Source of the DNA: an uncultured Alphaproteobacteria bacterium
GTDB taxonomy: Bacteria > Pseudomonadota > Alphaproteobacteria > Geminicoccales > Geminicoccaceae
DNA: 64,000 nt
Direction: 5' to 3'
NCBI GenBank assembly: GCA_963720725.1
Contig: CAVRGN010000006.1
Span: forward strand, 432 to 64,431
Part shown: in pieces, positions 1,373-48,744 of the stretch
Layout: the number at the start of each line of letters is the position of its first letter
How positions within the stretch are numbered: position 1 is the stretch's first letter
The notes under the pieces: model-generated
Database searches by the model: none
The model's input: the letters and a program-made list of their open reading frames with translations, nothing else
Told to the model about the DNA's origin: nothing
Made by a program: the position numbers and the translations under genes

Positions 1373-1660
1373 TTATGCCAGCTCCAGCCTCAACTTTCGC
1401 CCCACGGCCGCGGCCGCGCGCTGCAAGGTGTCCAGCGTCACCGAGGGATTGGCGGGGTCGAGCAGCCGGTCGAGTTGCGGGCGGCTGGTGCGCATGGCCT
1501 TGGCCATGGCAGACTTGGTCAGGCCGCGCTCCTGCATGGCGTGCTCGATCTGCCGCGCGAGCACCCGCTTGCTGGCGGTCGCGGTGCACGCCTCCAGGAT
1601 TCCTTCCTCGTCGAGGAAGCTCTCGAAGGAGGAGCCGATATGTGGATTGGCTTGGGTCAT
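1373..1660 (-). CDS. XRE/Cro-type HTH protein (HigA-like antitoxin/regulator)
   Basis: MTQANPHIGSSFESFLDEEG...TKSAMAKAMRTSRPQLDRLLDP...VTLDTL; ATG at 1660 preferred over the track start 1705. Confidence 0.8.
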   Translation of the reverse strand: MTQANPHIGSSFESFLDEEGILEACTATASKRVLARQIEHAMQERGLTKSAMAKAMRTSRPQLDRLLDPANPSVTLDTLQRAAAAVGRKLRLELA

Positions 1661-1701
1661 GTCCGAAGGTTTGTAGCGGTCGTGGGCAGCCGGTGCCAGC
1701 T

Positions 1702-1947
1702 TCACCCGTGCCGTCGCGCGTAGGCGTCGACGAGCGCCCGGATCATGCGCTGGTAGGGAACGCCGTGACGCGTGGCCTCGCCGCGGAAGAAGTCGACGCT
1801 GGCCCGGCTCAGCGCCAGGGTGACCTTCACCGTGTCCTCGCGGCGGACGAGTCGGTCCGGCGGCGGCAGGAAGTCGGGAAGGGGCCGTTCGGCGATCCCG
1901 TCCATCTCGCCCAGATCGTCCCGGTAGTCAGCCTCGGTGTCGGTCAT
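1702..1947 (-). CDS. CopG/ribbon-helix-helix antitoxin (BrnA-like)
   Basis: VKVTLALSRASVDFFR...GVPYQRMIRALVDAY; overlaps the upstream toxin; ATG at 1947. Confidence 0.75.
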   Translation of the reverse strand: MTDTEADYRDDLGEMDGIAERPLPDFLPPPDRLVRREDTVKVTLALSRASVDFFRGEATRHGVPYQRMIRALVDAYARRHG

Positions 1948-2206
1948 AGATCTTCCTGCCCATTCGCCAGTAGCCCGCGCCGAACACGCGGACACGCCCT
2001 TCGCGCCATGTGAACCGGACGGTCAGCACCCGACCACCGACCATGCCGAGGCAGAAGTAGCGCTGCTCGATCCCGCCATGGGCAAGGTCGGCGAAGATCA
2101 GGCGGTGCGGGTCGAAGAACGCATCCTGCGCCTCGGCGAAGCCGACGCCGTGCTTCGCCTGGTTGGCGACATCCTTGGCCAAGTCCCATTCGAAGCTGGC
2201 CGTCAC
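1928..2206 (-). CDS. brnT: BrnT family ribonuclease toxin
   Basis: FEWDLAKDVANQAKHGVGF...RYFCLG...VLTVRFTWRE. Confidence 0.85.
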   Translation of the reverse strand: MTASFEWDLAKDVANQAKHGVGFAEAQDAFFDPHRLIFADLAHGGIEQRYFCLGMVGGRVLTVRFTWREGRVRVFGAGYWRMGRKIYDRHRG

Positions 2207-32209: not shown

Positions 32210-32887
32210 ATGGCGGCACGGCGCATGGCTTTGGTGTTCGATCTCGACGGTACGCTGGTCGACAGCGTCTACCAGCATGTGGTGGCATGGCACCATGCGC
32301 TGCTCGCCAACGGGATCGAGCTGTCGATCTGGAAGATCCACCGCCGCATCGGCATGAGCGGCGGGCTGTTCACCCGCGCGCTCCTGCGCGAGACGGGCCG
32401 GGAGTACGATCCAGAGCTGCTGGAGCGGCTGCGCCAGGCGCATGCGGACGCCTACAAGCGGACGTCGGGCGACGTGCGGCCGCTGCCGGGGGCGGTCGAG
32501 CTCCTGGCCCGGCTCACCGCCATCGGCTGTCCCTGGGGCATCGCCACCAGCGGCCGGATCGAGACTGCGGGGCCGGTGATCGCCAAGCTGGGCGTGCCCG
32601 AGGGCGTGCCGATCATCACCCGCGACATGGTGGCCCACGCCAAGCCCGACCCCGACCTGTTCCTGGCGGCGGTGGACCGGCTGGGCGTCGATCCTTCGGG
32701 CGTCTACGTCATCGGCGACAGCGTCTGGGACCTGCTGGCGGCGCGGCGGGCGGGGACCCTGGGGATCGGCCTGCTGTCGGGCGGCTACGGCACCGAGGAA
32801 CTCGAGCGCGCCGGCGCGTACCGCGTGTACGACGACCCGGCCATGCTCCTGACCCGCCTCGACGAGTTGGGCGTGCGCGAGGCGTAG
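32210..32887 (+). CDS. HAD family phosphatase
   Basis: FDLDGTLVDS, ATSG, KPDPD, IGDSVWD. Confidence 0.93.
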   Translation: MAARRMALVFDLDGTLVDSVYQHVVAWHHALLANGIELSIWKIHRRIGMSGGLFTRALLRETGREYDPELLERLRQAHADAYKRTSGDVRPLPGAVELLARLTAIGCPWGIATSGRIETAGPVIAKLGVPEGVPIITRDMVAHAKPDPDLFLAAVDRLGVDPSGVYVIGDSVWDLLAARRAGTLGIGLLSGGYGTEELERAGAYRVYDDPAMLLTRLDELGVREA

Positions 32888-33066
32888 GCTTCTCCGCCCG
32901 CCCTCCGCTCAGGTTGCCCGCTTGCGCTGCATCGCGGCCAAGGCGCGGCGCCGGCAAAGCGCAAGGTCAAAGGAGAGGGTCCGTTTCATGACATGGCGGT
33001 CGCGTGTCTTGCCCTTGAAACCGTCTCGGCTTCGCTCGCGCCCGCCCGGCCCGGGCCGCCGGCGCC

Positions 33067-33186
33067 TTGCTCCGATTCAAGGAGCTCTATGGCAACGTCA
33101 GCGTGCTGGGGCTGACCTTTTCCGACAAGGTGAAGGCGCTGGCCGGCTGCGAGGTCAGCATGCGCGGCTTCATGGCGCCGCCGCCA
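33067..33186 (+). pseudogene. Truncated N-terminal fragment of a conserved alphaproteobacterial periplasmic protein (DUF3299-like)
   Basis: FKELYGNVSVLGLTFSDKVKALAGCEVSMRGFMAPP, then similarity stops; recognised from memory. Confidence 0.45.
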
Positions 33187-33224
33187 GCTTCGCCTGGTCG
33201 ATGCACGGTTCTGGACGGTGTAGA

Positions 33225-33305
33225 TCATCTCAGCCGGCGATCTCCCGCCAGGAAGTCCAGGAAGGTTCTGACCTTGGCGGAAAGCCATTTCCGGCTCGGA
33301 CAGAA
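33225..33305 (-). pseudogene. C-terminal remnant of a LysR-type regulator
   Basis: PSRKWLSAKVRTFLDFLA followed by a stop; no upstream LysR body. Confidence 0.6.
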
Positions 33306-33408
33306 CGCTCGCGGCCGGGCGTTCACCGTCGCCGCCTTCGCGACCACCAGCTCGCAGGCGCCCCTCGGCGAGGTTGCGCCGATGCGGCCGCACGTCGTCA
33401 ATGAGGCC

Positions 33409-34986
33409 TCACAGACTCCTGGCGCAGACATTGTGCCACGTCTTCAGTCCTAGGGCGGCCGGCGGCGGCGGGATGAGACAGACGATGGCGATCGCCATGA
33501 GCAGCGTGACGCCGATCGCGATCAGGACGTCGGCGTAGGCCATGGTCGTCGCCTGTGCCCGGAGCTGGCCGGCGACCGTCGCGAGCGCCGCCGCATCGCC
33601 GAGGAACGGGCGCAGCGCGCCGAGGCGATCCGGCAGGCCGCTCGAGAGGGCCGTCACCGTCTCCGTCAGCCGGGCCGAGTGGAACTGCTCGCGTTTGGTG
33701 AACAGGGTTGCGATGAGGCCAGCGCCGATGGTCGTCGACAGGGCGCGAATGGTGTTGAAGAGCGCATTGGCCGATGGCGCCTCCCGGGGGCCGATGCGCG
33801 AGGTCGCGATCACCATGATCGGAACCTGGACGAAGGGTTGGGCCATGCCTTGCACGATCTGGCTCAACAGGAACTGCGTCTCCTGGTATTGACTGGTCAC
33901 GCCGGCATTCATCAGCACGCCGGTTGCGAACAGCAGCAGGCCGAAGATCATGATCGGCCGCTCGTCGATCTGCCGGGCCAACGCCAGCACGAGTGGCGCC
34001 AGCAGCAGCTGCGGCAGCCCTACCCACAGAAGCGCGGTGCCGACCTCGAGCGGCCGATGGTTGTGGATGGTGACCAGAAAGGCCGGGATGATCATCGCGG
34101 CGGCGAGGAGGCCGACACGGAAGAGCGAGTTGCAGAGCACGGCCAGACCGAAATCGGGCCAGCGAAGGAGCCCAAGGTCGACGAGCGGAGCCTCGGTGCG
34201 CAGCTCGTGCCAGACGAAGAGGGTGACGAAGACGAGGGCCAGGGCCGACAGGTTCGCGATCAGCGGGCTGGCGAACCAGTCGAGCCGGTTGCCCTGGTCG
34301 AAGACGCATGCGGTACAGGCAAGGCCGAGCGCGATGAGGATCGCACCCTTCCAGTCGATCCGGCGCAATCTGGCGAGGTCGAGCGGGTCGCGCGGCAGGC
34401 CAACCCAGGCGCAGATCATGCAGATCAATCCCGGCACCAGGTTCTGGTGGAAGATCCCCCTCCAGCCAACCGCATCGGTGATCCAGCCATCGGTGGTGGC
34501 GGCGATCGTCGGCGTGAAGGTCAAGGTGACCGCGAAGAGTGCGATCCCCAGTGGCTTGTGCGGACCGGTGAAGGTCCGGAGCGTGATCTGGAATGCCAGC
34601 GGAATCATCGCACCGCCGGTCAATCCTTGCAGGAAACGGAGAGCCAGGAGCTGCTCGAGCGTGGTGGCAGCAGCGCAGGCAACGCAGATCGCAAGGAACA
34701 GCAGGACGTTCACGCACAGCCAGAGCCGGGTCGAGAAGACCGCCGCCAGGGCCGCGGTGACGGGTATGATGGCGAACTCACCGATCGAGTAGGCCGTGGG
34801 GATCCATGCGCCTTCGTCGAAGGCGGCACCGATGCCGCCCCGAATGTCGGCGATGGCGAATGCGGTGGTCTGCGTGTTCAAGAGCGCCATCACCGATCCG
34901 GTCAGACCGGCCGCCATGGCGAACCAGGCACGCGGCGTCAGTGACTCCGCGCCCGTGTCCGACGGGCGCTGGAGCTCTGCCGTCAT
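33409..34986 (-). CDS. DHA2/EmrB-type MFS efflux transporter
   Basis: WIPTAYSIGE, RFLQGLTGG, VFDQGNRLDWF, about 14 TM helices. Confidence 0.92.
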   Translation of the reverse strand: MTAELQRPSDTGAESLTPRAWFAMAAGLTGSVMALLNTQTTAFAIADIRGGIGAAFDEGAWIPTAYSIGEFAIIPVTAALAAVFSTRLWLCVNVLLFLAICVACAAATTLEQLLALRFLQGLTGGAMIPLAFQITLRTFTGPHKPLGIALFAVTLTFTPTIAATTDGWITDAVGWRGIFHQNLVPGLICMICAWVGLPRDPLDLARLRRIDWKGAILIALGLACTACVFDQGNRLDWFASPLIANLSALALVFVTLFVWHELRTEAPLVDLGLLRWPDFGLAVLCNSLFRVGLLAAAMIIPAFLVTIHNHRPLEVGTALLWVGLPQLLLAPLVLALARQIDERPIMIFGLLLFATGVLMNAGVTSQYQETQFLLSQIVQGMAQPFVQVPIMVIATSRIGPREAPSANALFNTIRALSTTIGAGLIATLFTKREQFHSARLTETVTALSSGLPDRLGALRPFLGDAAALATVAGQLRAQATTMAYADVLIAIGVTLLMAIAIVCLIPPPPAALGLKTWHNVCARSL

Positions 34987-36107
34987 CGCTGCCGGGGATC
35001 GGCGTGCGCCTGCCGATCGCCAAGCCCCAGCAGGGCGAGCAGGCGCTCGATCAGCGGCAGCGGCTCCGCGTCCGGAGCGGTGTCGACCGCGACCACGGCC
35101 GACATGCCGGGAAGAAGTCGCCCCACGAGCTCCTGCTTCGGCTCGATCACGACCTTGAGCGGAATCCGCTGCACGATCTTGGTGAAGTTGCCGGTCGCGT
35201 TGTCGGGTGGAAGCAGGGCCGTTGCGGCGCCGCTGGCGGATGCCAGGGCCGCCACGTGGCCGCGCACCTTCGCTCCAGGAAAGCTGTCGACCGTGATCGT
35301 GACCGGCTGGCCGGGGCGTACCCGGCCCAGCTGCGTCTCCTTGAAATTCGCATTGATCCAGACGGAATCGAGTGGGACCAGAGTGATGATCCCGGCTCCG
35401 ACTCCCACATACTGGCCTTCGAACACCGCCCGTTTGCCGAGCTGGCCGCGCACTGGCGCCCGGATGACGGTGTGCCCGAGATCGATCCGAGCGAGCTCGG
35501 TGGCTGCCCTGGCTTGGTCCAGCTCGGCCTCCGCCTGCCGCTGCTGCGCGGCAAGCACCGGGAGATGACCCTCGGCTTCCTGGATCGAGGCCGCGCTGCT
35601 CTTGAGCGCGGCGCGGTGCGCGAGATGGGCCGCCCTGGCCTCGTCCAGGGCTTCCTGCGTGCCGAAGGTCGTCTTGCGCAGGGAGCGGGCACGCTCCAGC
35701 TGCACCGACGCGAGGTCAAGATTGGCCTGCGTTGCTTCGTGCTGCGCGCGTGCCTGGGCGATCACGTCCTGCTGCTGGCGCAGCTGCGCGCCGATATGGT
35801 CGACCGCCGCCTGCCTTGCCTGCACGACGGCTTCGGCCTGGGCCACCTTTGCATGGTAGTCGTTGTCCTCGATCCGCAAGAGGGGCTGGCCCGCGTCCAC
35901 CATCTGGAAGTCCTGCACCAGAACGGCGGCGACGTAGCCCGGCACCTTCGCCGCAAGCATCCGCAAGTCACCTTGGACGGAGGCGTCATCCGTCGTCTGG
36001 ACACGGCGATCGACGCGCCACCAGTCCCAGCCCAAGGGCACGCCGACCGTCGCCAGGAGGGCAAGGACGGCAGCAACCAGCAAAAACTCGATGACCCGCA
36101 TGCTCAT
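34983..36107 (-). CDS. HlyD/EmrA membrane fusion protein
   Basis: TTDDA, VPGYV, TVIRAP, ANFKETQL, PPDNATGNFTKIVQRIP; start 36107 preferred. Confidence 0.92.
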   Translation of the reverse strand: MSMRVIEFLLVAAVLALLATVGVPLGWDWWRVDRRVQTTDDASVQGDLRMLAAKVPGYVAAVLVQDFQMVDAGQPLLRIEDNDYHAKVAQAEAVVQARQAAVDHIGAQLRQQQDVIAQARAQHEATQANLDLASVQLERARSLRKTTFGTQEALDEARAAHLAHRAALKSSAASIQEAEGHLPVLAAQQRQAEAELDQARAATELARIDLGHTVIRAPVRGQLGKRAVFEGQYVGVGAGIITLVPLDSVWINANFKETQLGRVRPGQPVTITVDSFPGAKVRGHVAALASASGAATALLPPDNATGNFTKIVQRIPLKVVIEPKQELVGRLLPGMSAVVAVDTAPDAEPLPLIERLLALLGLGDRQAHADPRQR

Positions 36108-36246
36108 CAGCGATGCCCCCGCTCGCGGAGCGCGTCGGTTGAGCCAGATCCCGACGCCGGGTCGGTCCACCCCGCTACCAACGTGAGGCCGAACATTGAG
36201 CCTATTCGCGTCCGTCGCTCTCCACCGATGGGAAGAGCACGCTGGC

Positions 36247-36834
36247 TCATCGACCGGTCGTCGTCAGACGAATGTCGATCTCGCGATCCATGAACGACCA
36301 CTCCCTGGTCGCCCGCAGCTGATCGAGCATCTCCTCGAACGCGATTTCACTCCCGGGCGCGAAATCGAGGAATCCGATGAAGTCGAAGGGCGCTTCGTGA
36401 TCCAGATCCCTGCAGTGAAGCAGGCGTCGGGCGACGGCCGGCAGATAGCGCATGCCGATGGCGATGTGGTGCGAGTCCTCTTCGAGGATCGTGCGCCGTT
36501 CATCCTGCGTGAGCGCCCACCACTCGGCCCGCTTGCGCAGCAGGATCAGCGCCGCATGGGTCGCCTCGGGACGTCCGATCGTGGCTTGCTTGCTGGTCAG
36601 CTCGGTCTTTTCCGATCGTGTCGTGTACCGGTCGTTGGACGCGACGCCGTGGAAAGCCCAGACCGCATCGGCGGGCAGATCCGCCGCGACGCCGGAGATC
36701 ATGTCGATGGCGGTGACACGCGCGATCGGCTGTCCGGAGATCGTGGTGTGGGAAACGACCTGCATGCTCCCCGTCTTGCCCCCGATGAAAGTGGTCGCTC
36801 TCGAATTCGAGGGCATCCGCCCATCTACTGTCAT
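36247..36834 (-). CDS. Chlorite dismutase-like heme protein, short clade II type
   Basis: SNDRY, GRPEAT, RK..EWW.L.QDERR, proximal His in SHHI, distal Arg in VARRLLHCRDL, EW..DREIDIRL. Confidence 0.85.
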   Translation of the reverse strand: MTVDGRMPSNSRATTFIGGKTGSMQVVSHTTISGQPIARVTAIDMISGVAADLPADAVWAFHGVASNDRYTTRSEKTELTSKQATIGRPEATHAALILLRKRAEWWALTQDERRTILEEDSHHIAIGMRYLPAVARRLLHCRDLDHEAPFDFIGFLDFAPGSEIAFEEMLDQLRATREWSFMDREIDIRLTTTGR

Positions 36835-36891
36835 GCTCGAGCCCTCCGATTGCTTGCGGCATATCTTCCGGCGATGCCCGACCTGCACCTG

Positions 36892-37947
36892 TCAACTGCC
36901 CGCGGCGCCGGCCGGGATGTCGTCCAGCCGCTTGAGTCGATAGACGCTGACCGACACGGCCCACGCGACGATGAACACGCCGATGATGGCGAAGCCGAGC
37001 GCGTTGAAGTTGTCGTTGAGCGCGCCAACGAGCCGCCAGAGATCACCTTCGAGCCCGTACCGATCGCCGACCAGGCCCAGCACCTCTATGCTGCCGATCA
37101 GCACGGCGACCAGCACCGAAACCAAGGTGATCGTCAGGTTGTAGTAGAGCTTGCGGATCGGTGCCCTGAACGCCCAGTCGTAGGCGCCCAGCATCACGAG
37201 GCCGTCGGTCGTGTCGACGAGAGACATCCCGGCAGCGAAAAGAGCGGGGAACACCATAATGGACCAGAGGGACTCGCCTTGCGCGACATGTGTCGCGGAA
37301 ATGCCAAGCAATGCCACCTCAGTCGCGGTTTCGAAGCCGATGCCGAAGAGGAAGCCGAGCGGGAACATATGCCAGCTCTTCGTCACCAGCCGAAACAGCG
37401 GCCGGAAAATCCGGGCGAGGAAGCCGCGGTTGTCGAGCAGGATGTCGAAATCCTCGTCCGCATAGACACCCCCCCGACGAACATGGCGGAACGCACGCCA
37501 GACCCCGCGCAGGATGATGATGTTTGCTGCCGCGACGGTGAACAGGAAGAATGCCGAGACCAGCGTGCCGACAAGCCCACCCACCGACTTGAGCGTGTCG
37601 GCGGGACCGAGCACTGCCGTAGCTGTGCCCGCAACCGCAACGGCAAGGACGACCACGGTCGAGTGTCCGAGCGCGAAGAAGAAACCGACCCCGACTGGCC
37701 GCTCTCCGGTCTGCATCAGCTTGCGAATGACGTTGTCGATCGCGGCGATGTGGTCGGCATCCACCGCATGGCGCAGCCCAAAGCCGTAAGCCAGCAGAGC
37801 CGTCCCAAGCAGCACCGGCTGGTCGTGAAACAGCAGTAGAGCACAGGTCCAAGCAGCGAGATTGGCGACAATCAACAGGGCATAGATGCCGATGACGCGT
37901 GGATGTAGCTCCGAAGGCTCGGAGAAGATGCGGCTGATCCGGGTCAT
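36892..37947 (-). CDS. HoxN/HupN/NixA (NiCoT) Ni/Co transporter
   Basis: Signature GLRHAVDADHIAAID, FFALGHSTVV, GIGFETATE. Confidence 0.95.
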   Translation of the reverse strand: MTRISRIFSEPSELHPRVIGIYALLIVANLAAWTCALLLFHDQPVLLGTALLAYGFGLRHAVDADHIAAIDNVIRKLMQTGERPVGVGFFFALGHSTVVVLAVAVAGTATAVLGPADTLKSVGGLVGTLVSAFFLFTVAAANIIILRGVWRAFRHVRRGGVYADEDFDILLDNRGFLARIFRPLFRLVTKSWHMFPLGFLFGIGFETATEVALLGISATHVAQGESLWSIMVFPALFAAGMSLVDTTDGLVMLGAYDWAFRAPIRKLYYNLTITLVSVLVAVLIGSIEVLGLVGDRYGLEGDLWRLVGALNDNFNALGFAIIGVFIVAWAVSVSVYRLKRLDDIPAGAAGS

Positions 37948-37983
37948 CTTGGCTGGATCCGATGGGCTGTCTTCGGATTCACG

Positions 37984-38733
37984 TCAGACTTGCGCCGATC
38001 CGCCGTCGACGAACAGTTCGCTTCCACTCATGAAGCTGCTGTCGTCCGAGGCGAGGAAGAGGGCGGCGCGCGCGATCTCATCGGGCTCGCCCATCCGTCC
38101 GAGCGGAATGGACGCGACCGCGGCTTCGATCATGGCCTCGTGCACGTCCTCGCTTGGTGCGAGGCCATGCCAGCCGGGCGTGGAGGTGGCGCCCGGTACC
38201 AGCACATTGACCCGTATCTTCCGCGGTGCGAGATCCAGCGTCCAGGTGCGGGCGAAGTTGCGCACCGCTGCCTTGCTGGCGCTGTAGACGCTGAAGGCAG
38301 GCGTTCCGGTCGTGCCCGTGGTGGACCCGGTCAGGATGATGGAGCCACCCTCCTTCATCAGCGGCAGCGCCTTTTGCACGGTGAACAGCGTACCCTTGAC
38401 GTTGGTCGCGAAGATCGTGTCGAACTGCTCCTCCGTGATCGAACCGAGCGGCGCGAACGTCCCGCCGCCTGCGTTGGCGAAGAGCACGTCAACGGTTCCA
38501 GCCGCATCCCGGACGGTTGCGAACAGACGGTCGAGGTCCGCAAGGTTCGAAACGTCGCTTCGCACGCCGTGCGCACCTCGACCGATCGCCTGTACGGCGG
38601 CGTCGAGTTCCCGCTGGCGTCGTGCCGTCATGAAGACGGTGGCACCCTCCTCGACAAACAGCCGCGCCGAAGCCAAGCCGATGCCGCTGTTGGCACCGGT
38701 GATGACGGCGACCTTGCCTTGAAGTCTTCCCAT
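37984..38733 (-). CDS. SDR oxidoreductase
   Basis: ITGANSGIG, FANAG, YSASK, PLGRMGEPDEIA. Confidence 0.93.
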   Translation of the reverse strand: MGRLQGKVAVITGANSGIGLASARLFVEEGATVFMTARRQRELDAAVQAIGRGAHGVRSDVSNLADLDRLFATVRDAAGTVDVLFANAGGGTFAPLGSITEEQFDTIFATNVKGTLFTVQKALPLMKEGGSIILTGSTTGTTGTPAFSVYSASKAAVRNFARTWTLDLAPRKIRVNVLVPGATSTPGWHGLAPSEDVHEAMIEAAVASIPLGRMGEPDEIARAALFLASDDSSFMSGSELFVDGGSAQV

Positions 38734-38802
38734 GCGACCTGCACTCCCTTGGCTCACGCAAACGTCTCGGCGGGCGTCGAGCACGACAGCCGGAAATGTC
38801 CG

Positions 38803-39234
38803 TCAGGTTGAACTCTCGGCCGTTCCGGCGGCCTCGTGCGCGATCTCGGCCAAGGCCTCTTGCATGCCTTGGACGGCGGGGATCCTGTCGGTCGGGAGAC
38901 CGTGCCGGCACCCGATCCAGGCGGGTTCGTTGAAGCCGAGCCACGCCACTCCGTCTCCGTCCTGCCAGACGAGGACCTTGAGCGGGAGGTCGATGCCGGC
39001 AGTCTGCGCCGCCTGCATCAGCGGCGTACCGCCGCGTGCGCTTCCGAAGACCAGAAGTTCGGTCGGGCGAAGCGACAGCCCCGCCTCTGCCGCTCCGGCC
39101 CCATGGTCAATTCGGGCGAAGATGGTCATTCCCCGGCCCGTGACGCTGGCAACCAGGCGATCCATGGTCTCCAGCGGTCCGTGGCTGCTCCTGAGGCACG
39201 TCAGTCCGGCCGGGGGGTCCATCGGTTCGCTCAC
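38803..39234 (-). CDS. DUF302 domain protein
   Basis: IFARIDH, LLVFGS..GTPLMQ, DLPLKVLVW. Confidence 0.88.
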   Translation of the reverse strand: MSEPMDPPAGLTCLRSSHGPLETMDRLVASVTGRGMTIFARIDHGAGAAEAGLSLRPTELLVFGSARGGTPLMQAAQTAGIDLPLKVLVWQDGDGVAWLGFNEPAWIGCRHGLPTDRIPAVQGMQEALAEIAHEAAGTAESST

Positions 39235-39587
39235 GTCGCGACAAGCTCAGCCGGAGGCAGCTCGGCAGACCAGCGCGCCTCGATCTCGTTCATCTTCTCG
39301 GCAAGGCCGGTCGGCGTCAGGACACCCTTCTGGAACAATAGGACGGCGAAGGCGGTGGCCCACCGTTCATAGTAGCCCAACCGATCGATCGTCGCTGCCC
39401 CGAGCGCCTCGACGCCACGGCGCTTCTCCTCGGTGCTGATGAGCTTGTGATAGTCCAAGACATCGGCCAGGGCGTGGCAGCGCCTCTCCCAGGCGGCGAG
39501 TTCGCGTTCTACTCGCGCGAAGGCAGGCGAGGGCTGACCGCCCACGTCGTTGGGCAGCCGGCGCATGAAGTCTTCCAAGCCCGTCAT
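39231..39587 (-). CDS. Thiocyanate hydrolase beta-like subunit (N-terminal half of NHase beta)
   Basis: RLPNDVGG, WE, TEEKRRGVE, YYERW. Confidence 0.8.
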   Translation of the reverse strand: MTGLEDFMRRLPNDVGGQPSPAFARVERELAAWERRCHALADVLDYHKLISTEEKRRGVEALGAATIDRLGYYERWATAFAVLLFQKGVLTPTGLAEKMNEIEARWSAELPPAELVAT

Positions 39588-40225
39588 GCCGCGGCCCTCT
39601 GTTCATCGACCTTGACAGGGACGACGCCGATCATCGCGTCGCGCGTGACCAGGGTCGCTAGCTGCTCCTCGGTGTAGCCGTCGGTGCCCTCGGGTCGGAC
39701 CGGCAGCACGAGAAAGCGCAATGCGGAAGTCGAGTTGGCGACCCGGATCTCCACCTCCTGCGGGATGATGGTGCCGAACTCGGCCAGCAGCGCGCGCGGC
39801 TCAGCTACGGCGCGGGCGCGGTAGGGTTTCAACTTGTACCACTCGGGTGGCAAACCAAGGAGCGGGCGGGGATAGCAGGAGCACAGTGTGCAGACGACCA
39901 GGTTGTGAACCTGCTCGGTGTTCTCGAGAACGATGAGGCCCGTGTCGTCGTAGAAGGTGACGCCGAGCTCCTCGCAAGTCCCCCGGCCGTCGGCGAGCAG
40001 GCGAGCGCGGAAAGCGGGGTCCGTCCAGGCGCGGGCGACGACCTTGGCGCCCAGGGCGGGTGTGCGGGAGTCCAGAACGTCGATCTGGCGCTCGATCTCG
40101 CCGGTCTGCAGGATCTTGCGCTCGATCAGCATCTCCTCGAGCGCCGCTTGCAGGATGTCGAAATAACCGGGCCGCTCCGGCGCCCCGATCTCCTCATGGG
40201 CATGGTCCCGATCGTGGTCATGCAT
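39584..40225 (-). CDS. Thiocyanate hydrolase gamma / nitrile hydratase alpha-like cobalt subunit
   Basis: Metal motif VCTLCSCYPRPLLG, GAKVVARAWTDP, WYK...YRARAV.EPR. Confidence 0.93.
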   Translation of the reverse strand: MHDHDRDHAHEEIGAPERPGYFDILQAALEEMLIERKILQTGEIERQIDVLDSRTPALGAKVVARAWTDPAFRARLLADGRGTCEELGVTFYDDTGLIVLENTEQVHNLVVCTLCSCYPRPLLGLPPEWYKLKPYRARAVAEPRALLAEFGTIIPQEVEIRVANSTSALRFLVLPVRPEGTDGYTEEQLATLVTRDAMIGVVPVKVDEQRAAA

Positions 40226-40571
40226 TGCGGGCGGCCTCCAGCCAGGTTTCGAAGACTTCGATGTACAGGCGGTCGCGGTGACTCCCGGCGTAGTCGGTCC
40301 AGATGTCGGACATGGGGACGGCGATCCGGTAGTAATGTCGCTTCACGCCGGCGTTCAGGCCGAAGCCCTCCTCCTCATTGTCGACGGCCGGTTGGACGAG
40401 CCTCTCAACTATGCCCGTCCGGCCGCGAAGATATAGAGGCACGCGGTAATGCCCGAGCGGGAACCGCTCCACGACCCGGACCCGCTCGCCCGGTCGGAAG
40501 ACTGGTGTCTCGCCAAGTGCCGGCACCACTTTGGCAAGTCGTGGATCATCGACCGGTGGCTGTGATTCCAT
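40218..40571 (-). CDS. Thiocyanate hydrolase alpha-like subunit (SH3-like C-terminal half of NHase beta)
   Basis: FRPGERVRV, HYRVPLYLRGRTG, YYRI, DIW, VFETWLE. Confidence 0.85.
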   Translation of the reverse strand: MESQPPVDDPRLAKVVPALGETPVFRPGERVRVVERFPLGHYRVPLYLRGRTGIVERLVQPAVDNEEEGFGLNAGVKRHYYRIAVPMSDIWTDYAGSHRDRLYIEVFETWLEAARNA

Positions 40572-40655
40572 TCCGAAATTCCTTCGATCAGTCCCTCGCC
40601 CGACTTCGGACCTGGACGTCGGCGTGAGTCATCGCTTCCCTGTGCCGCTCGGCCC

Positions 40656-41480
40656 TCAGCTCTCGATGAAGGCAAGAAGATCGGCATTGATGGTGTCGGC
40701 CTGAGTAGTCGGCATGCCGTGCGGGAAGCCCTCATAAGTCTTGAGCGTTCCCTTCTTCAGCAGCTTGGCCGATAGTGGCCCGGAATCGGCGTATGGGACG
40801 ATCTGATCGTCCTTGCTGTGCATCACCAGCACGGGCACGTCGATCTCCTCGAGATCGGCCGTGAAGTCCGTCTGCGAGTAGGCGACGATGCCGTCATAGT
40901 GGGCCTTGGCGCCGCCCATCATTCCCTGGCGCCACCAGTTCTGGATGATCGCCTCCGAGGGTTTCGCACCAGGCCGGTCGTAGTTGTAGAACGGACCAGC
41001 GGCGATAGCGCGATAGAATTCCGATCGGTTCGCGGCGAGCTGCGCCTGGAGGCCGTCGAACACGTCCTTCGGCACCCCCCCTGGATTGGCGGCGGTCTTC
41101 ACCATCAGCGGCGGCACCGCACTGATGATGGCGGCCTTGGTCGCCCGGCCCTTGCCATGCCGTGCGAGGTAGTGGACCACTTCGCCGCCGCCGGTCGAAT
41201 GGCCGATGTGAATTGCGTTGGTCAAATCGAGATGCGCCGTCAGTGCGGCGAGATCGTCGGCGTAGTGATCCATGTCATGACCGTCATCGACCTGCGTCGA
41301 ACGGCCATGCCCGCGCCGATCGTGGGCGATGACGCGATAACCCTTGCCGAGAAAGAACAACATCTGGGTGTCCCAATCATCGGCCGACAGGGGCCAGCCG
41401 TGACTGAAAACAATGGGTCGGCCCTTGCCCCAATCCTTGTAGTAGATTTCGATGCCGTCGCGAGTGGTTACTGTGTTCAT
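40656..41480 (-). CDS. Non-heme chloroperoxidase/arylesterase-family alpha/beta hydrolase
   Basis: [35 protein letters not shown]. Confidence 0.92.
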   Translation of the reverse strand: MNTVTTRDGIEIYYKDWGKGRPIVFSHGWPLSADDWDTQMLFFLGKGYRVIAHDRRGHGRSTQVDDGHDMDHYADDLAALTAHLDLTNAIHIGHSTGGGEVVHYLARHGKGRATKAAIISAVPPLMVKTAANPGGVPKDVFDGLQAQLAANRSEFYRAIAAGPFYNYDRPGAKPSEAIIQNWWRQGMMGGAKAHYDGIVAYSQTDFTADLEEIDVPVLVMHSKDDQIVPYADSGPLSAKLLKKGTLKTYEGFPHGMPTTQADTINADLLAFIES

Positions 41481-41526
41481 ACCGTCCTCCGGACGTTGGG
41501 ATGACTAGCGGAGCTGGCCGGCAGGG

Positions 41527-42531
41527 TCACTTGAGGCCCTGTGCAAAGGCGAGAAGGTCGCCGTTGAACTCGTCCTTGTGGGTGACGGTCAGCCCATGCG
41601 GCGCGCCCGGATAAACCTTCAGCGTTGCGTTCTTGATCAGCTTCGCCGAGATCCTCGCGGTGGTCGCGATCGGGACGTTCTGGTCGTCCTCGCCGTGAAT
41701 GATCAGCGTCGGGACATCGAATCTCCGTAGATCCGGTGTGAAGTCGGTTTCGGAAAAGGCCTTGATCCCTTCGTAGGATGCTCGCAGCCCGACCTGCATG
41801 CACCAAAGCCAGAAGGCGTCCCTGATGCCTTGCGACACGTTCGAGCCCGGGCGATTGGCGCCGAAGAACGGCCCGTCGCCGAGATCACGGTAGAATTGTG
41901 CGCGGTCGCCGGCGACGCCGGCACGGATGCCGTCGAACACCTCGATCGGCACGCCATCGGGATTTGCCGGTGTCTTGAGCAGCAGCGGCGGGATGGCAGA
42001 GACAAGGACCGCACCGGAAAGTCTGTCCGTCCCGTACCTGCCGATGTAGCGGGCGACGTCTCCGGCCCCGGCTGAATGACCCACCAAAGTTGCGGTCTCG
42101 AGGTCCAGCGCGCGGATCAGTTCTGAGAGGTCCTCGGCGAAGGTGTCATAATCGTTCCCTTGCCAGGGCTGGCTCGACCGGCCATGCCCGCGACGATCGA
42201 AAGCAACGCAGCGGAAGCCGTGCGATGCCATGAACATCATCTGATCGTCCCAGATGTCGGCGTTCAAAGGCCAGCCATGGCTGAAGACCACCGGCACTCC
42301 TTCGCCCCAGTCCTTGTAGTATATGTCGGTGCCGTCCTTCGTCCTGATGAAGCTCGACCTCTGTCCTGCAGCACTCGGCCGTTCGCCCGACCCGCCCGTC
42401 TCTTGCGCGTGCGCGGCGATGGTGATGTTCGGGACTGGCGCCAAACTCGACGCCGCCGCAAGGCCGCCGAGCAGCACATTGCGGCGAGCCGCGGCTCCGT
42501 GGGTGAGCGGAAATCGGTCCGGACGTGTCAT
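41527..42531 (-). CDS. Tat-signal-bearing non-heme chloroperoxidase-family alpha/beta hydrolase
   Basis: [14 protein letters not shown] signal; [28 protein letters not shown]; ATG at 42531. Confidence 0.88.
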
Positions 42532-42575
42532 GCTGGTCCCTCGATCGAAGCCGCCATGGCGATGGCGCGGATTAT

Positions 42576-43550
42576 TCACTGCGGAGCGGTTGAGCGGTCG
42601 AGAAAGTCACGGATCATCGGCGCCATGACGTCGAGCTTGTCTTCGAGAGCGAAGTGCCCGGTGTCCAGCAGATGCAGTTCAGCCTTGGGAAGGTCGCGAA
42701 GATAGGGGCTCGCCCCGGCAGCCGGAAAAATCTGATCGTTCTTGCCCCATACAATCAACGTAGGCGGTTGGTATTTGCGAAAGAAGGACTGAAATTCGGG
42801 ATACAGCGGCACATTGGTGCCATAGTCATGGAATAGGTCGAGCTGAATGTCTCTGTTGCCGGGCCTGTCAAGAAGCGCTTGGTCGTGAACCCAATTGTCC
42901 GGACTGATGCGCGACACGTCGCTGACGCCGTCGACGTATTGGAATCTCGTGATCGCGGGGGTCACGAGAAAGTCCAGCGCCCGTCGATGCGCTTCTGATC
43001 CGTTCGCCCAATACGCCTTGATCGGATCCCAGAACGCTCCGAGACCTTCCGCGTAGGCGTTGCCATTCTGCACCACGAGCGCAGTAACCCGCTCGGGATG
43101 CAGCAGTGCCAAGCGGTAGCCAACGGGTGCGCCATAATCCATGACGTACATCGCGTAGCGCGTGGCCCCGAGTTGCTGCAGCAGGGCGTCCACCAAGCTG
43201 GCGTAATGTGCAAAGGTGTAGCTGAATTCCGAATGGTCGGGCGCGGCGCTCTGGCCGAAGCCAGGATAGTCCGGTGCAATCACGCGATAGTGGTCGGCCA
43301 GCGTCGGGATGAGGTTTCGGAACATGTGCGACGAGGTCGGAAACCCGTGCAGTAGAACCACGACCGGGCCGTCCGGTGGGCCGGCCTCCCGGTAGAACAA
43401 GCTGATCCCGTCGACGGTCGCGGTTCGGTAGTGCGTAGCGTTCCCTGCGGCCTGCAGCGCCGTCTGCGCGTCCGCGGCCGAGAACCCCGCCTCGGCGACG
43501 CAGGTCAGGAGCGTGATGGCCGCCGCGACGGCCAGCCTGTTCCGCTTCAC
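42576..43550 (-). CDS. Secreted Asp-nucleophile alpha/beta hydrolase (epoxide hydrolase/dehalogenase-like)
   Basis: GTG 43550 with AAAGGGGA upstream and a signal-like [14 protein letters not shown]; [29 protein letters not shown]. Confidence 0.88.
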
Positions 43551-44270
43551 TGCCGGGTCCCCTTTCGTAGCGGTCAGGTGCGAACCCAGCGCGACACGCA
43601 GTGCGCTCACCATCGACGCGTCGACTGCCATGTTGAAACCCTGCGCTGCCGTGATCTCGTGGTGCGACAGGACAGTGCCCGAGATCGGCGGAACGCGGGT
43701 GTTAGGTGTTGCTAAAAGCTGCTCAGCGGCCTGTGCCGAGGATGCTTTGGAGCGCGCACCATGCTTGGCGGCGGATGGGTCACCGGTTCCGCTGGCCGGA
43801 GCATGCCCCGCTCGCTCCGGGCTGGCCATCGCAGCGGCGGAAGTGGCTCCGCGCCGGCGCGGGACGAGGTGTTTTCTCCCGGCGGGCAACCGCGTCTTCG
43901 CCGGTGCCGCCGCGATGCTGGGGGCAACGAAGCAGTAACCCCTGCCGGGGACGTTGGTGATGTATCGGGGCCGATCCGGCCGGCACCCCAGGGCCTTTCT
44001 CAAGGACGCCAGATGCACCCGCGGAGTGCCTGGACTGACCCGGACATCGGCCCATACGTGAGCGATGAGTTCCTCGTGCTTCACGACCTGACCTGCGCGT
44101 TGCACGAGAACAGTGAGGATGTCGAAGGCCCGGCTGCCGAGCGGGACAGGAAGACCGTCCCGCCGCAACGATCGCTCGGCGAGGTCCAGTTGGAACGGGC
44201 CGAACACGAACGATTGCACGCCCGCGAAACCGGCCAGCGCGGCGTCTGGCCAATGGTTGGCTTGCCCCAC
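43551..44270 (-). CDS. OmpR-type winged-helix DNA-binding domain reading in frame into the hydrolase
   Basis: GTG 44270 with GGAGGTG upstream; [41 protein letters not shown]; no stop before 42576. Confidence 0.75.
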
Positions 44271-44593
44271 GGTCCACCTCCGTCCCGCTGGCCGACGGCC
44301 TTGATCGGCCTCGATCCACGCGGTGAATGCAGTCACTGTCAACTACGAGATACAGTCGGTCAAGGGAATTGATGGCAGTGCCAGTTGGAGCGGATATGAG
44401 CATCCTCCGCTGCTACGTCGGAGCCGTGCCGCGCGGGCAAGGTGCGAGACCAGCGTAGGCACTGGAATGACGTTGCTCGGTCTGATAGATGCTCCTGTGC
44501 CTGGGCGGTGCAGGCAGGCTTTGCACCGCAGCGACTGGCGTGTTATGCATGGATGTGCCGGATACAATGCGCGGCGGGTGACTGGAATCAGAC

Positions 44594-45976
44594 ATGAGCG
44601 AATGGGTGCCAAGCTTGGGCAACGGCACGAAACCGCGCTACATAGCGATTGCAGAAGCGATCGAGGTCGACCTGGTTCAAGGGCGGCTTGCTCCTGCCCA
44701 GCGACTGCCCGCACAGCGGCAACTGGCCCGATTGCTCGGTCTGGATTTCACGACGGTGGCGCGGGGCTATGGCGAGGCTCAGCGACGCGGTCTGATCGAG
44801 TCGCGCGTCGGGGAAGGCACCTTCGTTACGGCTGCGCCGACGGCTGGCGGCAGACCGGCCGGACGCGTGGAGGCCGCCGACTTCTCGATGAACATGCCGC
44901 CCGAGTTCGACGACGTGGCGCTCTGGACGAGGCTCAACGCGAGTTTCGAGACGATCACCCACGATCTTGCCCGTGTGCTGCGATACCAACGCTTTGGCGG
45001 AACCGAGGCCGACAAGCAGGCGGCGGTCGGCTGGCTTGGCCGCCGCGGCGTAGTGGCGGGACCGGACAGGTTGTTCGTGGTTCCGGGTGCTCATTCGGCA
45101 CTGCTGGCTGCAATGATGATCCTGTCGGAGAAAGGGCGCGGGATTGTCCTGACGGAGACGCTCACCTACCCCGGGGTGAAGGCGATTGCCGAACAGCTTG
45201 GGCTCCAGCTGCTTGGGGTCCCGGTCGACCAGCATGGATTGTCCCCCACTGCGCTCGCAGAGGCTTGCAAGCACCACCTGCCCAAAGCACTTTATCTGAA
45301 CCCGACGCTGTCCAACCCGACCACGCGGACGATGCCGATCCAGCGCCGGCACGAGATTGCCGCGATTGCCCGGGAGCACGGCGTCGCGATCATCGAAGAT
45401 GATCCGTACAGCCCTCTTCCAGATGATGCTCCGCCGGCTTTCGCGACGGTCGCACCTGAAATCACCTGGCATGTCGCGACGCTGTCCAAATGCCTTGGCG
45501 CGGGGCTGCGCGTCGCCTACGTCGTGGTTCCCGACGTGCGTTCAGGCTGGAAATTCGCGTCCGCGGTGCGGTCCGCGAACGTGATGGTCTCGCCCGTCAC
45601 GGCGACGCTGGCGACACGGTGGATCATGGACGGCACGGCGGACGCGGTGTTGAGGGCGATCCGAGCGGAGACCCGTGAGCGGCAGGCTCTCGTCGCATCG
45701 ATCCTGCCGACCGAACTGGTGGCGACGGACCCGGCTGGATTTCATGCCTGGCTCTCTCTGCCTCCCCGCTGGAGCCGCTCCGCGTTCGTTGGCCACATGG
45801 CTTCCTGCGGGCTTGGCGTCGTCCCGAGCGACGTGTTCGGGACACAGGAGCCTGCCCCGGAGGCGGTTCGCATCTGTCTCGGTGGACCAGCGCCGCGCCC
45901 GGTCGTACGGACCGCGCTGGAGTTTGCTGCGCACGCTCTGTCCGAATCGCCGGCCGGGGCTTCCAGCTTCCTGTGA
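44594..45976 (+). CDS. MocR/GabR family regulator (GntR HTH + PLP aminotransferase-like domain)
   Basis: RLPAQRQLA, TVARGY, GEGTFV, PTLSNPT, EDDPY, TLSKCLGAGLRVAY. Confidence 0.93.
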   Translation: MSEWVPSLGNGTKPRYIAIAEAIEVDLVQGRLAPAQRLPAQRQLARLLGLDFTTVARGYGEAQRRGLIESRVGEGTFVTAAPTAGGRPAGRVEAADFSMNMPPEFDDVALWTRLNASFETITHDLARVLRYQRFGGTEADKQAAVGWLGRRGVVAGPDRLFVVPGAHSALLAAMMILSEKGRGIVLTETLTYPGVKAIAEQLGLQLLGVPVDQHGLSPTALAEACKHHLPKALYLNPTLSNPTTRTMPIQRRHEIAAIAREHGVAIIEDDPYSPLPDDAPPAFATVAPEITWHVATLSKCLGAGLRVAYVVVPDVRSGWKFASAVRSANVMVSPVTATLATRWIMDGTADAVLRAIRAETRERQALVASILPTELVATDPAGFHAWLSLPPRWSRSAFVGHMASCGLGVVPSDVFGTQEPAPEAVRICLGGPAPRPVVRTALEFAAHALSESPAGASSFL

Positions 45977-46151
45977 CCTTCGGTGCGTGGCGCCGCTGTC
46001 CGGTTGAATGCAGCGGCACAGGCTCTCTCCCGAGCGCCGGGAGAGAGCCACGGCCAAGCGGTACGACGAGGGCCGAGCCCGATGCGGTTTCGGCAGTCGT
46101 CGAGCCGCACCTGCCGCCGGCCAAGCCGGGGTGGTCGGACGCGCCCGAGCG

Positions 46152-48245: not shown

Positions 48246-48744
48246 GGAGTTCTCCCGCCCTAGCTTCATGCGAGTGAGGTGGCTCTTGCGGCTCTTCACT
48301 CGGCCATTCTGGCGCCATATCGTCGCCGCGCGATTTGTTGCTGAACCGCCATTTGCCAGCAATATGCTTTTTGTTGTCCACTCTGCAGTGCGCGTTGAAT
48401 AGAGTAGAAAGCCGTACAATAGGGCAACTCAGTTATGCTTTTGCGCTTCTCTAAGTTCATGTTATTCTATCATCGGTACGCATAGGCGCAGAAGCTCGTT
48501 GCGCTCGGGATTTGAGGAGTGTTTGGCTGTTTCTCCAGACGATACGGCGTTGCCGGCTTCTTGTATCGCTGCCGCAGAGACTCCCAACTGTTGGATCTTG
48601 GTCACGAAGCGGCCGCGATGGGCTGCGACGTGCGCCGCCCCCTCCACGACCCGCACATGGCGGCCGAGATCGTAGCATGGGTCTCGTCGGCATCAACGCT
48701 CGCCAGAAGGCGCAGCGGTCGCGCCGCGGCGCGCCTTACGTCCA

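Follow-up and report, generated by a model that had tools for sequence, protein, structure and literature searches.

A split cobalt-type hydratase of the nitrile hydratase family shares a conserved neighbourhood with chlorite dismutase: a possible defence island against oxidised (pseudo)halogen species in a Geminicoccaceae bacterium

In a 64,000-nucleotide stretch of DNA from an uncultured alphaproteobacterium of the family Geminicoccaceae (the whole stretch, contig CAVRGN010000006.1, positions 432 to 64,431, is called the window here; G000:C6:432-64431 in our numbering), we found a three-polypeptide enzyme of the nitrile hydratase (NHase) family encoded within one gene cluster together with a clade-2 chlorite dismutase (Cld) and a cobalt importer. 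Judged by its sequence, the hydratase is a distinct cobalt-type subfamily of the NHase family with all of its catalytic residues present. We tentatively favour, at somewhat short of an even chance, the reading that the locus was gained by horizontal transfer and works as a modular island of defence against oxidised (pseudo)halogen species and the products of their breakdown. The source genome comprises 4.7 Mb in 13 contigs and has a high GC content. Families were assigned with Pfam and NCBIfam profiles, and extra comparisons were made with solved structures. According to the open reading frame (ORF) list of the window, positions 33409-44342 hold twelve ORFs, all on the minus strand, which are separated by -4, 76, 3, 36, 18, -4, -4, -8, 84, 46 and -4 nt. 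A preliminary description of this DNA had reported a run of co-oriented genes with short gaps or overlaps; the run was confirmed as these twelve minus-strand ORFs, and all of the family names given there hold in Pfam and NCBIfam. By its sequence context, a divergent MocR-type regulator is a thirteenth part of the unit. The parts are as follows.

44594..45976, plus strand: MocR-type regulator of 460 aa (Pfam GntR and Aminotran_1_2, i.e., a GntR helix-turn-helix and a class I/II aminotransferase-like domain)
42576..44342, minus strand: g01, winged helix plus alpha/beta hydrolase (Pfam Trans_reg_C and Abhydrolase_1)
41527..42579, minus strand: g02, Cpo-family alpha/beta hydrolase (Pfam; 51% identical to g03)
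40656..41480, minus strand: g03, Cpo-family serine hydrolase of 274 aa (Pfam and structure matches; GHSTGG)
40218..40571, minus strand: NHase-family betaC subunit of 117 aa (PF02211, NHase_beta_C)
39584..40225, minus strand: NHase-family alpha subunit of the cobalt type, 213 aa (PF02979, 256 bits)
39231..39587, minus strand: NHase-family betaN subunit of 118 aa (PF21006, NHase_beta_N)
38803..39234, minus strand: DUF302 protein (PF03625)
37984..38784, minus strand: short-chain dehydrogenase/reductase (SDR) oxidoreductase (Pfam adh_short_C2)
36892..37947, minus strand: NiCoT (HoxN/NixA family) nickel/cobalt permease (TIGR00802, 420 bits against a cut-off of 333)
36247..36834, minus strand: clade-2 Cld of 195 aa (PF06778, 29.3 against a cut-off of 25; match to PaCld 9GTJ; the ORF could reach 36888)
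34983..36170, minus strand: HlyD/EmrA-type membrane fusion protein (Pfam HlyD_D23 and HlyD_3)
33409..34986, minus strand: EmrB-like transporter of the major facilitator superfamily (MFS), 525 aa (Pfam MFS_1)

The alpha subunit of the hydratase carries the motif VCTLCSCYPRP, and VVCTLCSCYPRP was present in the window and in all relatives, which identifies the metal-binding motif C-T-L-C-S-C as the cobalt variant with Thr and Tyr. The beta subunit is divided over two genes that flank alpha: betaC, which precedes it, corresponds to positions 135-226 of TIGR03888, and betaN, which follows it, to positions 27-101. The residues that hold the oxidised cysteines or take part in catalysis in NHase beta (two Arg, Tyr-Tyr and Trp) were all found, distributed over the two polypeptides. 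The invariant residues of betaN among 19 members include K55, R56, Y72, Y73 and W76, and the conserved Arg of GHYRVP in betaC is kept in all members. Both halves found their best solved-structure matches in subunits of thiocyanate hydrolase (SCNase), namely, SCNase alpha for betaC (41.8 bits) and SCNase beta for betaN, and a betaN profile built from the 19 sequences scored 54.7 bits with SCNase beta against 34.8 bits with the best NHase beta. At one and the same site, which presumably belongs to the substrate pocket, betaN reads TEEKRR (STEEKRR/NTEEKRR), SCNase AEERRR and NHase LDEFRH. Thr, Lys and the first Arg of this motif are invariant, and both Glu and the second Arg occur in at least 90% of the 19 members; throughout the subfamily, Thr and Lys stand in the places of the hydrophobic Leu and Phe of LDEFRH. 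In SCNase, these pocket positions presumably serve to bind SCN-, to which the paired mutant entries 3VYG and 3VYH also point.

The term "Scn-like," which had been applied to these three subunits, thus stands in part. It is backed by the split beta subunit, the SCNase matches of both halves and the Lys and Thr at the presumed pocket positions. It is opposed by the curated models, by the gene order and by an alpha subunit that lies nearer to the cobalt-type NHases: alpha narrowly missed the cut-off of the NHase alpha model TIGR01323 (245.2 against 249.85) and clearly missed that of the SCNase gamma model TIGR03887 (208.6 against 291.45, a difference of 83 bits). A TIGR03887 search of 400 phylum genomes for tree references gave no match, controls included. 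The genes are arranged as betaC-alpha-betaN-DUF302 in the window, and betaC-alpha-betaN was found in 22 of the 23 related loci counted below. A review lists six NHase gene orders, none of which is betaC-alpha-betaN, and gives alpha-beta-gamma-activator as the SCNase order (PMC7193024). Within the cluster, betaN occupies the position of the activator in beta-alpha-activator clusters. We rejected the possibility that it is an activator instead of a subunit: none of the cluster genes matched the accessory-protein (activator) models, and betaN carries the catalytic Arg, Tyr and Trp residues. Neither a canonical amidase nor an aldoxime dehydratase was among the Pfam and NCBIfam calls for the window cluster, and a single annotated amidase was seen among the related loci, about 6 kb from the split NHase of L043. 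The lack of an amidase in the window cluster would agree with a product that breaks down spontaneously (thiocarbamate, carbamate) or with a small amide. Taken together with the SCNase-like Lys and Thr in place of Phe and Leu, this lack makes a small polar or anionic substrate with a C-N triple bond most likely.

The cluster was then viewed against 24 independent split-NHase-related loci with flanks of 8-10 kb. Partner counts were made on 23 of these, 22 of which had been chosen through alpha; L050, on an unrelated metagenome contig, is the 24th. The Gammaproteobacteria metagenome-assembled genome (MAG) locus L008 was counted, and the short or truncated Gammaproteobacteria contigs L011 and L012 were seen and left out of the counts. 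Alpha homologues with 63-92% identity are numerous in soil and peat metagenomes, and the loci stem from cultured strains as well as MAGs, with Alpha-, Beta- and Gammaproteobacteria and Acidobacteria represented. The paralogous cluster on contig C11 of the source genome itself is also one of the loci. The MAG loci derive from Rhodopila, Beijerinckiaceae, Caulobacterales, Acidobacteria, unclassified Alphaproteobacteria and relatives within the host family. Plasmid-borne loci were found in Polymorphobacter sp. PAMC 29334, Rhizobium leguminosarum ATCC 14479, Rhizobium spp. WYJ-E13 and AB2/73, Agrobacterium tumefaciens cl001, Microvirga terrae and Burkholderia sp. PAMC 26561. The beta halves accompanied alpha almost throughout (betaN in 23/23 loci, betaC in 22/23), followed by DUF302 (15/23), Cpo-type hydrolases (12/23), a stand-alone g01-type hydrolase with an Asp nucleophile (10/23; 70-88% identity), SDR orthologues (8/23; 61-87% identity), NiCoT (8/23), homologues of the winged-helix DNA-binding domain of g01 (7/23), Cld (7/23; 6 of the 22 chosen through alpha), the cobalt transporter CbtAB (4/23) and an HlyD/MFS pair (1/23). 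L034 shows nearly the gene order of the window, including an analogous HlyD-MFS pair, and L050 comprises MocR, a full-length g01 fusion, ABH274, SDR-Cld and the NHase. As a check on synteny beyond this genome, these data show that clade-2 Cld and a cobalt importer accompany the split NHase in several phyla, with varying arrangements of the genes. The gene-content comparison supports the view that the genes form a conserved functional neighbourhood beyond chance association. In some long-read contigs, alpha or betaC is broken into several frames (L039:8144-8985, L012:10001-10562 and L037:9654-9993), which could be due to assembly error or decay.

The Cld of the window aligns without gaps with the Pseudomonas aeruginosa enzyme PaCld (9GTJ; E = 1.6e-57) and also matches the dimeric Clds of Cyanothece (E = 8.6e-51) and Nitrobacter (E = 1.8e-49). 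The ten residues that the PaCld paper gives as functional or specific to clade 2 (Tyr62, Ile89, Lys93, Trp98, Arg105, Arg106, His115, Leu123, Arg128 and Glu170) are all identical, and every NHase-linked homologue retains the proximal His and the distal Arg. By its sequence, the protein, which had been called "Cld-like," is a fully intact Cld of the clade-2 dimeric type. Its start likely lies at 36834, later than the start of the ORF, and the corresponding 195-aa product is present in the protein collection. Cld is the sole copy in the genome and occurs in only 2 of 107 genomes of the host family. The Cld-linked loci belong to Beijerinckiaceae, Caulobacterales, Sphingomonadales and unclassified Alphaproteobacteria, with alpha identities of 68-88%, and Cld takes four different positions in them: it follows betaN directly, NiCoT on either the same or the opposite strand, or SDR. 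Starting in reverse from Cld homologues, we obtained five contexts, two of which contained the split NHase (L039 and L050); two others held the partner set without NHase (L051 and, in Rhizobium sp. IBUN, L040), and one ended at a contig end next to an insertion sequence (IS) element. A comparison of the two homologue lists yielded eight further pairs of alpha and Cld matches on equally long contigs. Among 72,556 plasmids, the only Cld with more than 60% identity was that of Polymorphobacter (sp. PAMC 29334, plasmid p29334-1), which lies 2.5 kb from the split NHase. Clade-2 Clds occur widely among aerobes without (per)chlorate respiration.

NiCoT carries the signature RHAVDADH, scored well above the family cut-off and is the sole copy in the genome; it presumably imports cobalt. 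Such a supply is consistent with the cobalt-type enzyme; NiCoT occurs in eight of the 23 loci and CbtAB in four more. The most constant partner of the hydratase is DUF302, which is often placed between the NHase and the cobalt transporter. Its ORF overlaps betaN by 4 nt, and this overlap suggests that the two are translationally coupled. We considered DUF302 as an NHase-specific cobalt chaperone, an idea that was weakened by its occurrence in Cld loci without NHase and beside genes resembling sulfite dehydrogenase, again without NHase (L051). The SDR, whose start likely lies at about 38733 (249 aa) according to homologue lengths, was found directly upstream of Cld in L034, L050 and L051. Of the two Cpo-family hydrolases, g03 matched esterase 1ZOI with 457 bits, the non-heme chloroperoxidase 4DGQ with 442 bits and CPO-L with 398 bits, the similarity extending over almost the whole protein; gamma-lactamase 1HKH of the same family was matched as well. 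Similarity, the Ser-Asp-His triad and the GHSTGG serine motif place g03 in the Cpo family, and it would be a cytoplasmic protein of the non-heme haloperoxidase, perhydrolase or esterase type. Its orthologues (85-89% identity) were found in L003, L034, L036, L037 and L050. The second hydrolase, g02, is probably periplasmic because a twin-arginine-like signal that ends in AHA could be read at its N terminus. Homologue lengths place its start at about 42531, and its orthologues of 334 aa (76-82% identity) are located in L003, L034 and L037. The efflux pair had likewise been counted as a member of the system, but it is not a constant one: analogues of HlyD and MFS were present in just one other split-NHase locus (L034; 43% and 26% identity), and RND pumps occupy the position of the pump in the Cld loci L040 and L051. 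In the window, the MFS ORF overlaps the HlyD gene by 4 nt, and the HlyD-family protein has one N-terminal transmembrane segment.

Two regulators stand at the head of the unit. The g01 protein consists of a winged-helix DNA-binding domain (residues 65-138), a low-complexity linker, a hydrophobic segment at about 269-290, which is the only one found, and an alpha/beta hydrolase domain (326-569); a weak match to CadC was also obtained. This architecture looks like that of ToxR or CadC, i.e., a membrane-anchored regulator, here with an enzyme fold as its putative sensor. The hydrolase part matched a haloalkane dehalogenase core with 85 bits and retains the nucleophile Asp (MDYG) and the His (GHFALED). 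The positions of the halide-stabilising Asn and Trp of dehalogenases are taken by Phe (in HGFPTSS) and by Tyr after the Asp, and its NCBIfam scores lie far below the cut-offs (108 against 241), so that the domain is not assigned to the haloalkane dehalogenases. We rejected an accidental in-frame fusion or an ORF-calling artefact, since the full-length fusion is also encoded in L050 (3893-5578; 72% identity over 587 aa); g01 therefore represents a conserved architecture. Other loci encode regulators of 930-1000 aa that begin with the g01-type DNA-binding domain and contain NB-ARC or TPR domains. The MocR homologue in L050 (460 aa, 77% identity) is divergent and lies next to the g01 fusion gene there too, so that we count MocR as part of the unit.

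Several features indicate that the cluster was likely acquired horizontally. GC content at third codon positions (GC3) is 0.74-0.87 in the cluster and 0.90-0.96 in core genes at 2-33 kb. The closest relatives of alpha (85-92% identity) occur in other lineages, and the same genus and family yielded only matches of 70-74% (73-74% within the genus), which fit a paralogue on contig C11. The split-NHase subfamily is sparse, being found in 8 of 107 family genomes and in 1 of 400 sampled genomes of the class, and related loci adjoin integrase, resolvase or IS elements or are located on plasmids. The paralogue is a second split-NHase module of the same genome (C11:147688-152395; L023) with 61-69% identity to the window copy. 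It comprises a stand-alone g01-type hydrolase (73%), betaC, alpha, betaN and DUF302 and is without NiCoT, Cld and SDR; the orthologues present in the genus and family are those of this module, not of the window copy. The genome encodes a third NHase alpha, an ordinary one, at C3:569985-570587. Between 33400 and 58000, the GC content is 0.63-0.69 and most genes have a GC3 of 0.74-0.87, compared to a GC content of 0.65-0.74 and a GC3 of 0.86-0.96 at 2-33 kb. As the lowered values extend to about 58 kb, the foreign segment may be larger than the cluster.

Among known systems, SCNase (ScnABC of Thiobacillus thioparus, 2DD4) shares with the window the NHase family, a non-corrin cobalt, a split beta subunit, the lack of an amidase partner, its standing as best structure match of betaN and betaC and, presumably, basic residues at the pocket positions (AEERRR against TEEKRR). 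It differs in that its catalytic subunit is encoded last (PMC7193024) rather than between the beta halves, in that the alpha of the window misses TIGR03887 and is nearer to cobalt-type NHase alpha and in that a P15K-type activator is missing from the window. Whereas SCNase belongs to the energy metabolism of a sulfur oxidiser, the window places the hydratase among Cld, SDR and hydrolases. Cobalt-type NHases, in turn, have a single beta subunit of about 220 aa instead of two half-size genes that flank alpha. In Rhodococcus rhodochrous J1, the NiCoT permease NhlF is encoded beside a cobalt-type NHase (nhlBAE-nhlF) and supplies the metal. The adjacency of a NiCoT-family transporter and a cobalt-type NHase is the same in the window, but the J1 system has an undivided beta subunit, the activator NhlE and amidase-linked nitrile catabolism and is not known to have Cld, DUF302 or Cpo partners. 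Closer in subunit structure are the Streptomyces enzymes AnhDEA and ToyJKL (S. rimosus), which consist of alpha and two half-betas of about 10-13 kDa and have no separate activator. AnhD/AnhE/AnhA of Streptomyces canus form a cobalt-type three-subunit NHase without activator, in which AnhD, the N-terminal half, is a metal and subunit-swapping chaperone (PMC7329996). The Streptomyces order is betaN-betaC-alpha, in contrast to betaC-alpha-betaN here (PMC7329996; compared by description). They either convert organic nitriles or belong to a pathway for a nucleoside antibiotic, and the paper reports no association with Cld, DUF302 or a cobalt transporter (PMC7329996).

That no described pathway joins these parts, as had been stated before, proved only partly correct. 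An atlas of group-2 Cld neighbourhoods (Barnum & Coates 2022, PMC9751292) already associates Cld with SDR, alpha/beta hydrolases of about 280 aa, non-heme chloroperoxidase, cupin, AhpD-like RcsA, GST, LysR/OmpR regulators and mobility genes. The SDR subfamily is among those most strongly linked to Cld there, and a related SDR showed a chlorite-specific fitness defect (PMC9751292). At the family level, the window resembles this atlas, as an SDR, two Cpo hydrolases and regulators lie within 8 kb of Cld. The main text of the atlas mentions no nitrile, DUF302 or cobalt, and two supplementary files contain no nitrile hydratase, DUF302 or nickel (PMC9751292). The association of SDR, Cld and hydrolases is therefore known, and the module of split hydratase, DUF302 and cobalt transporter and its link to Cld appear to be undescribed, because no paper on them was found. 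Genes for cupin, AhpD-like, OsmC, GST and PNPOx-like proteins were also observed to flank split NHases without Cld.

Hypochlorous acid turns amino acids into aldehydes and nitriles via chloramines. If the locus is a defence island, Cld would remove chlorite, and the hydratase would hydrate small polar or anionic species with a C-N triple bond (thiocyanate, cyanate, cyanide, cyanogen-derived compounds or nitriles from chloramine decay), yielding ammonia and carbonyl sulfide (COS) or CO2, or a small amide. By analogy to AnhD of S. canus, betaN would probably double as the cobalt-insertion chaperone. SDR and the hydrolases could clear aldehydes, peracids or esters and chlorinated by-products, and the EmrAB-like pump might export what remains. 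The particular chemistry (SCN-, OSCN-, ClO2- or HOCl) and the substrate are ones that we infer. The functional reading of the preliminary description, a coordinated system for chemistry of this type, is supported in part: the conserved neighbourhood, the intact Cld, the consistent cobalt supply and the SCNase-like traits speak for it, and a constant membership of the efflux pair and an identity as SCNase by the curated model are not supported.

Several observations weigh against a defence island. Cld is present in just about one quarter of the split-NHase loci, so that the hydratase must also work without it. When compared with solved structures, alpha scored 214 bits with the cobalt-type NHase of Pseudonocardia (1IRE), 179 with SCNase gamma and about 157 with Fe-type NHases. 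The Arg that follows CSCYP, at the site whose residue was exchanged between the paired PDB entries 3VYG and 3VYH, had been considered as an SCNase-like mark of specificity; it is also found in ordinary alphaproteobacterial NHases with fused beta and is therefore not discriminating. On Rhizobium and Agrobacterium plasmids, the end of betaN is overlapped by an aquaporin gene, after which come DUF302, CbtB and CbtA in L046/L047 and CbtB and CbtA in L043. This placement in Rhizobiaceae favours a small neutral solute over an anion as substrate or product of the hydratase in those strains. A cytochrome P460 gene directly adjoins those of the NHase in L002, L036, L037 and L044 and is found no more than 2.5 kb away in L035 and L050, and molybdoenzymes of the sulfite oxidase fold are located near the split NHase or its Cld in L001, L044, L045 and L051. 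The recurrence of P460, MOSC and sulfite-dehydrogenase-like neighbours hints at N-O or sulfur chemistry, which a defence island explains loosely. A scan of 32800-46200 for promoter and terminator consensus sequences found none above the shuffled expectation, such scans being uninformative in high-GC DNA. Finally, our literature searches yielded no paper in which NHase is treated as one system with Cld, with DUF302 or with reactive chlorine species and related oxidants (hypochlorous acid, hypochlorite, chlorite or hypothiocyanous acid).

The quarter of loci with Cld leaves room for a different reading, in which the cluster serves the catabolism of organic nitriles or xenobiotics within a mosaic island, a Cpo hydrolase acts as amidase or esterase, SDR oxidises or reduces the product and Cld and the pump are passengers. 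It would draw on the similarity of alpha to cobalt-type NHases that act on organic nitriles, on the characterised three-subunit NHases, which hydrate organic nitriles (PMC7329996), on the amide-cleaving lactamase 1HKH within the Cpo family, on the roughly three quarters of split-NHase loci without Cld and on mosaic loci flanked by IS elements, integrase or resolvase. However, canonical amidase and aldoxime dehydratase genes are missing from the window cluster, an annotated amidase lies nearby in a single related locus (L043), and all members have Thr and Lys in place of the Leu and Phe of LDEFRH. Moreover, the link to Cld, which is rare in the family, recurs in varied orders and lineages, a pattern that is hard to reconcile with hitch-hiking, and families that partner Cld flank the NHase even where Cld is absent. 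We consider such a catabolic role to be fairly unlikely.

The sulfur-related neighbours instead raise the question of nutrition, i.e., the use of thiocyanate or cyanate as a source of nitrogen and sulfur by a true SCNase variant that forms COS and NH3, with DUF302 and the sulfite-dehydrogenase-like proteins processing the sulfur and Cld being incidental. DUF302 is known from sox sulfur-oxidation operons (PMC5248467). In L051, a sulfite-oxidase-fold enzyme directly follows DUF302 and precedes a cytochrome c in a SorAB-like arrangement, and the sulfite-oxidase-like genes in L001, L044 and L045 fit the same picture. On the Burkholderia sp. PAMC 26561 plasmid (L049), cyanase (cynS) and a CmpA/NrtA-type ABC transporter of the cyanate type are encoded about 3-8 kb from the split NHase-NiCoT module. 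The split beta subunit with both halves best matched by SCNase subunits, the parallel between TEEKRR and AEERRR of SCNase beta and the dispensability of an amidase point in this direction as well. Against it stand the 83-bit miss of the SCNase gamma model and an alpha nearer to NHase, and the window cluster is without a COS hydrolase or carbonic anhydrase, a sulfide-oxidation gene and an anion importer. We rejected the neighbouring proteins of the metallo-beta-lactamase (MBL) fold as persulfide dioxygenases or chlorothalonil dehalogenases, as their best matches were B3-type MBL-fold proteins and the dehalogenase scored only 33 bits; this, too, speaks against a nutritional role. The recurrent partners Cld, SDR and Cpo would be left unexplained, and on balance a nutritional role seems improbable.

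Aldoxime dehydratase and NHase form a known pathway, and aldoxime dehydratase and Cld share a ferredoxin-like fold. By this analogy, and given the recurrence of neighbours for N-O compounds (cytochrome P460 and MOSC), the Cld-like protein could make the substrate of the hydratase, e.g., as a heme dehydratase on an oxime-like compound instead of acting on chlorite, with P460 and MOSC handling hydroxylamine-type side products; we regard this as very improbable because the active site of Cld is fully conserved, with all ten clade-2 residues kept here and the distal Arg and proximal His in every NHase-linked homologue, and in addition the protein is more than 50% identical (printed alignments) to enzymes with measured chlorite dismutase activity and most split-NHase loci are without Cld.

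Downstream of the cluster lie a HAD hydrolase and the core genes rpsF, rpsR and rplI. Further upstream, the region of 46-62 kb holds unrelated genes for a peroxidase-like dihaem protein, GH114, a multicopper oxidase, SCO1, an NtrC-type two-component pair and an extracytoplasmic function (ECF) sigma factor. Upstream, the MocR regulator is adjoined by a gene on the minus strand (46152-48419) for a 755-aa protein with a dihaem cytochrome c peroxidase/MauG domain and a weak RoxA-like cytochrome c match, which was not seen in related loci. At the other end of the window, positions 1-2000 have a much lower GC content (0.54); an AAA/ABC-type ATPase fragment as in OLD or Abi-like defence proteins is located at 346-1080 (minus strand), and genes for a BrnT-like (DUF497) toxin and small helix-turn-helix (HTH) or antitoxin proteins lie at 1373-2206 (minus strand). 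The related cluster in L050 ends with a BrnT/HTH pair and a resolvase. No match was obtained when the window was scanned with Rfam models and for tRNA genes.

To our knowledge, only two reaction types are established for the NHase family, nitrile hydration and thiocyanate hydrolysis. A bolder form of the defence reading, which we consider unlikely, is that betaC-alpha-betaN constitutes a new functional class of NHase that detoxifies C-N triple-bond species arising from reactive halogen chemistry, together with Cld and SDR. Candidate substrates of such a class would be thiocyanate or its S-oxides, cyanate, products of cyanogen chloride or nitriles from chloramine decay. If this were true, the enzyme would represent the first enzymatic bridge between the redox biology of chlorine and cyanide/pseudohalide metabolism, a physiological context would be given for clade-2 Cld in aerobic soil bacteria and DUF302 could be a required subunit or a partner in cofactor handling. 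The defence hypothesis is directly testable because strains that carry the module are in culture, among them Polymorphobacter sp. PAMC 29334, Rhizobium leguminosarum ATCC 14479 and Agrobacterium tumefaciens cl001. The sensor design of g01, which combines a winged helix, a membrane segment and a hydrolase domain, is unusual. The locus could reveal a new class of substrates for the NHase family and the roles of DUF302 and the Cld-linked SDR, and it could show which oxidised chlorine or pseudohalogen stress soil bacteria face.

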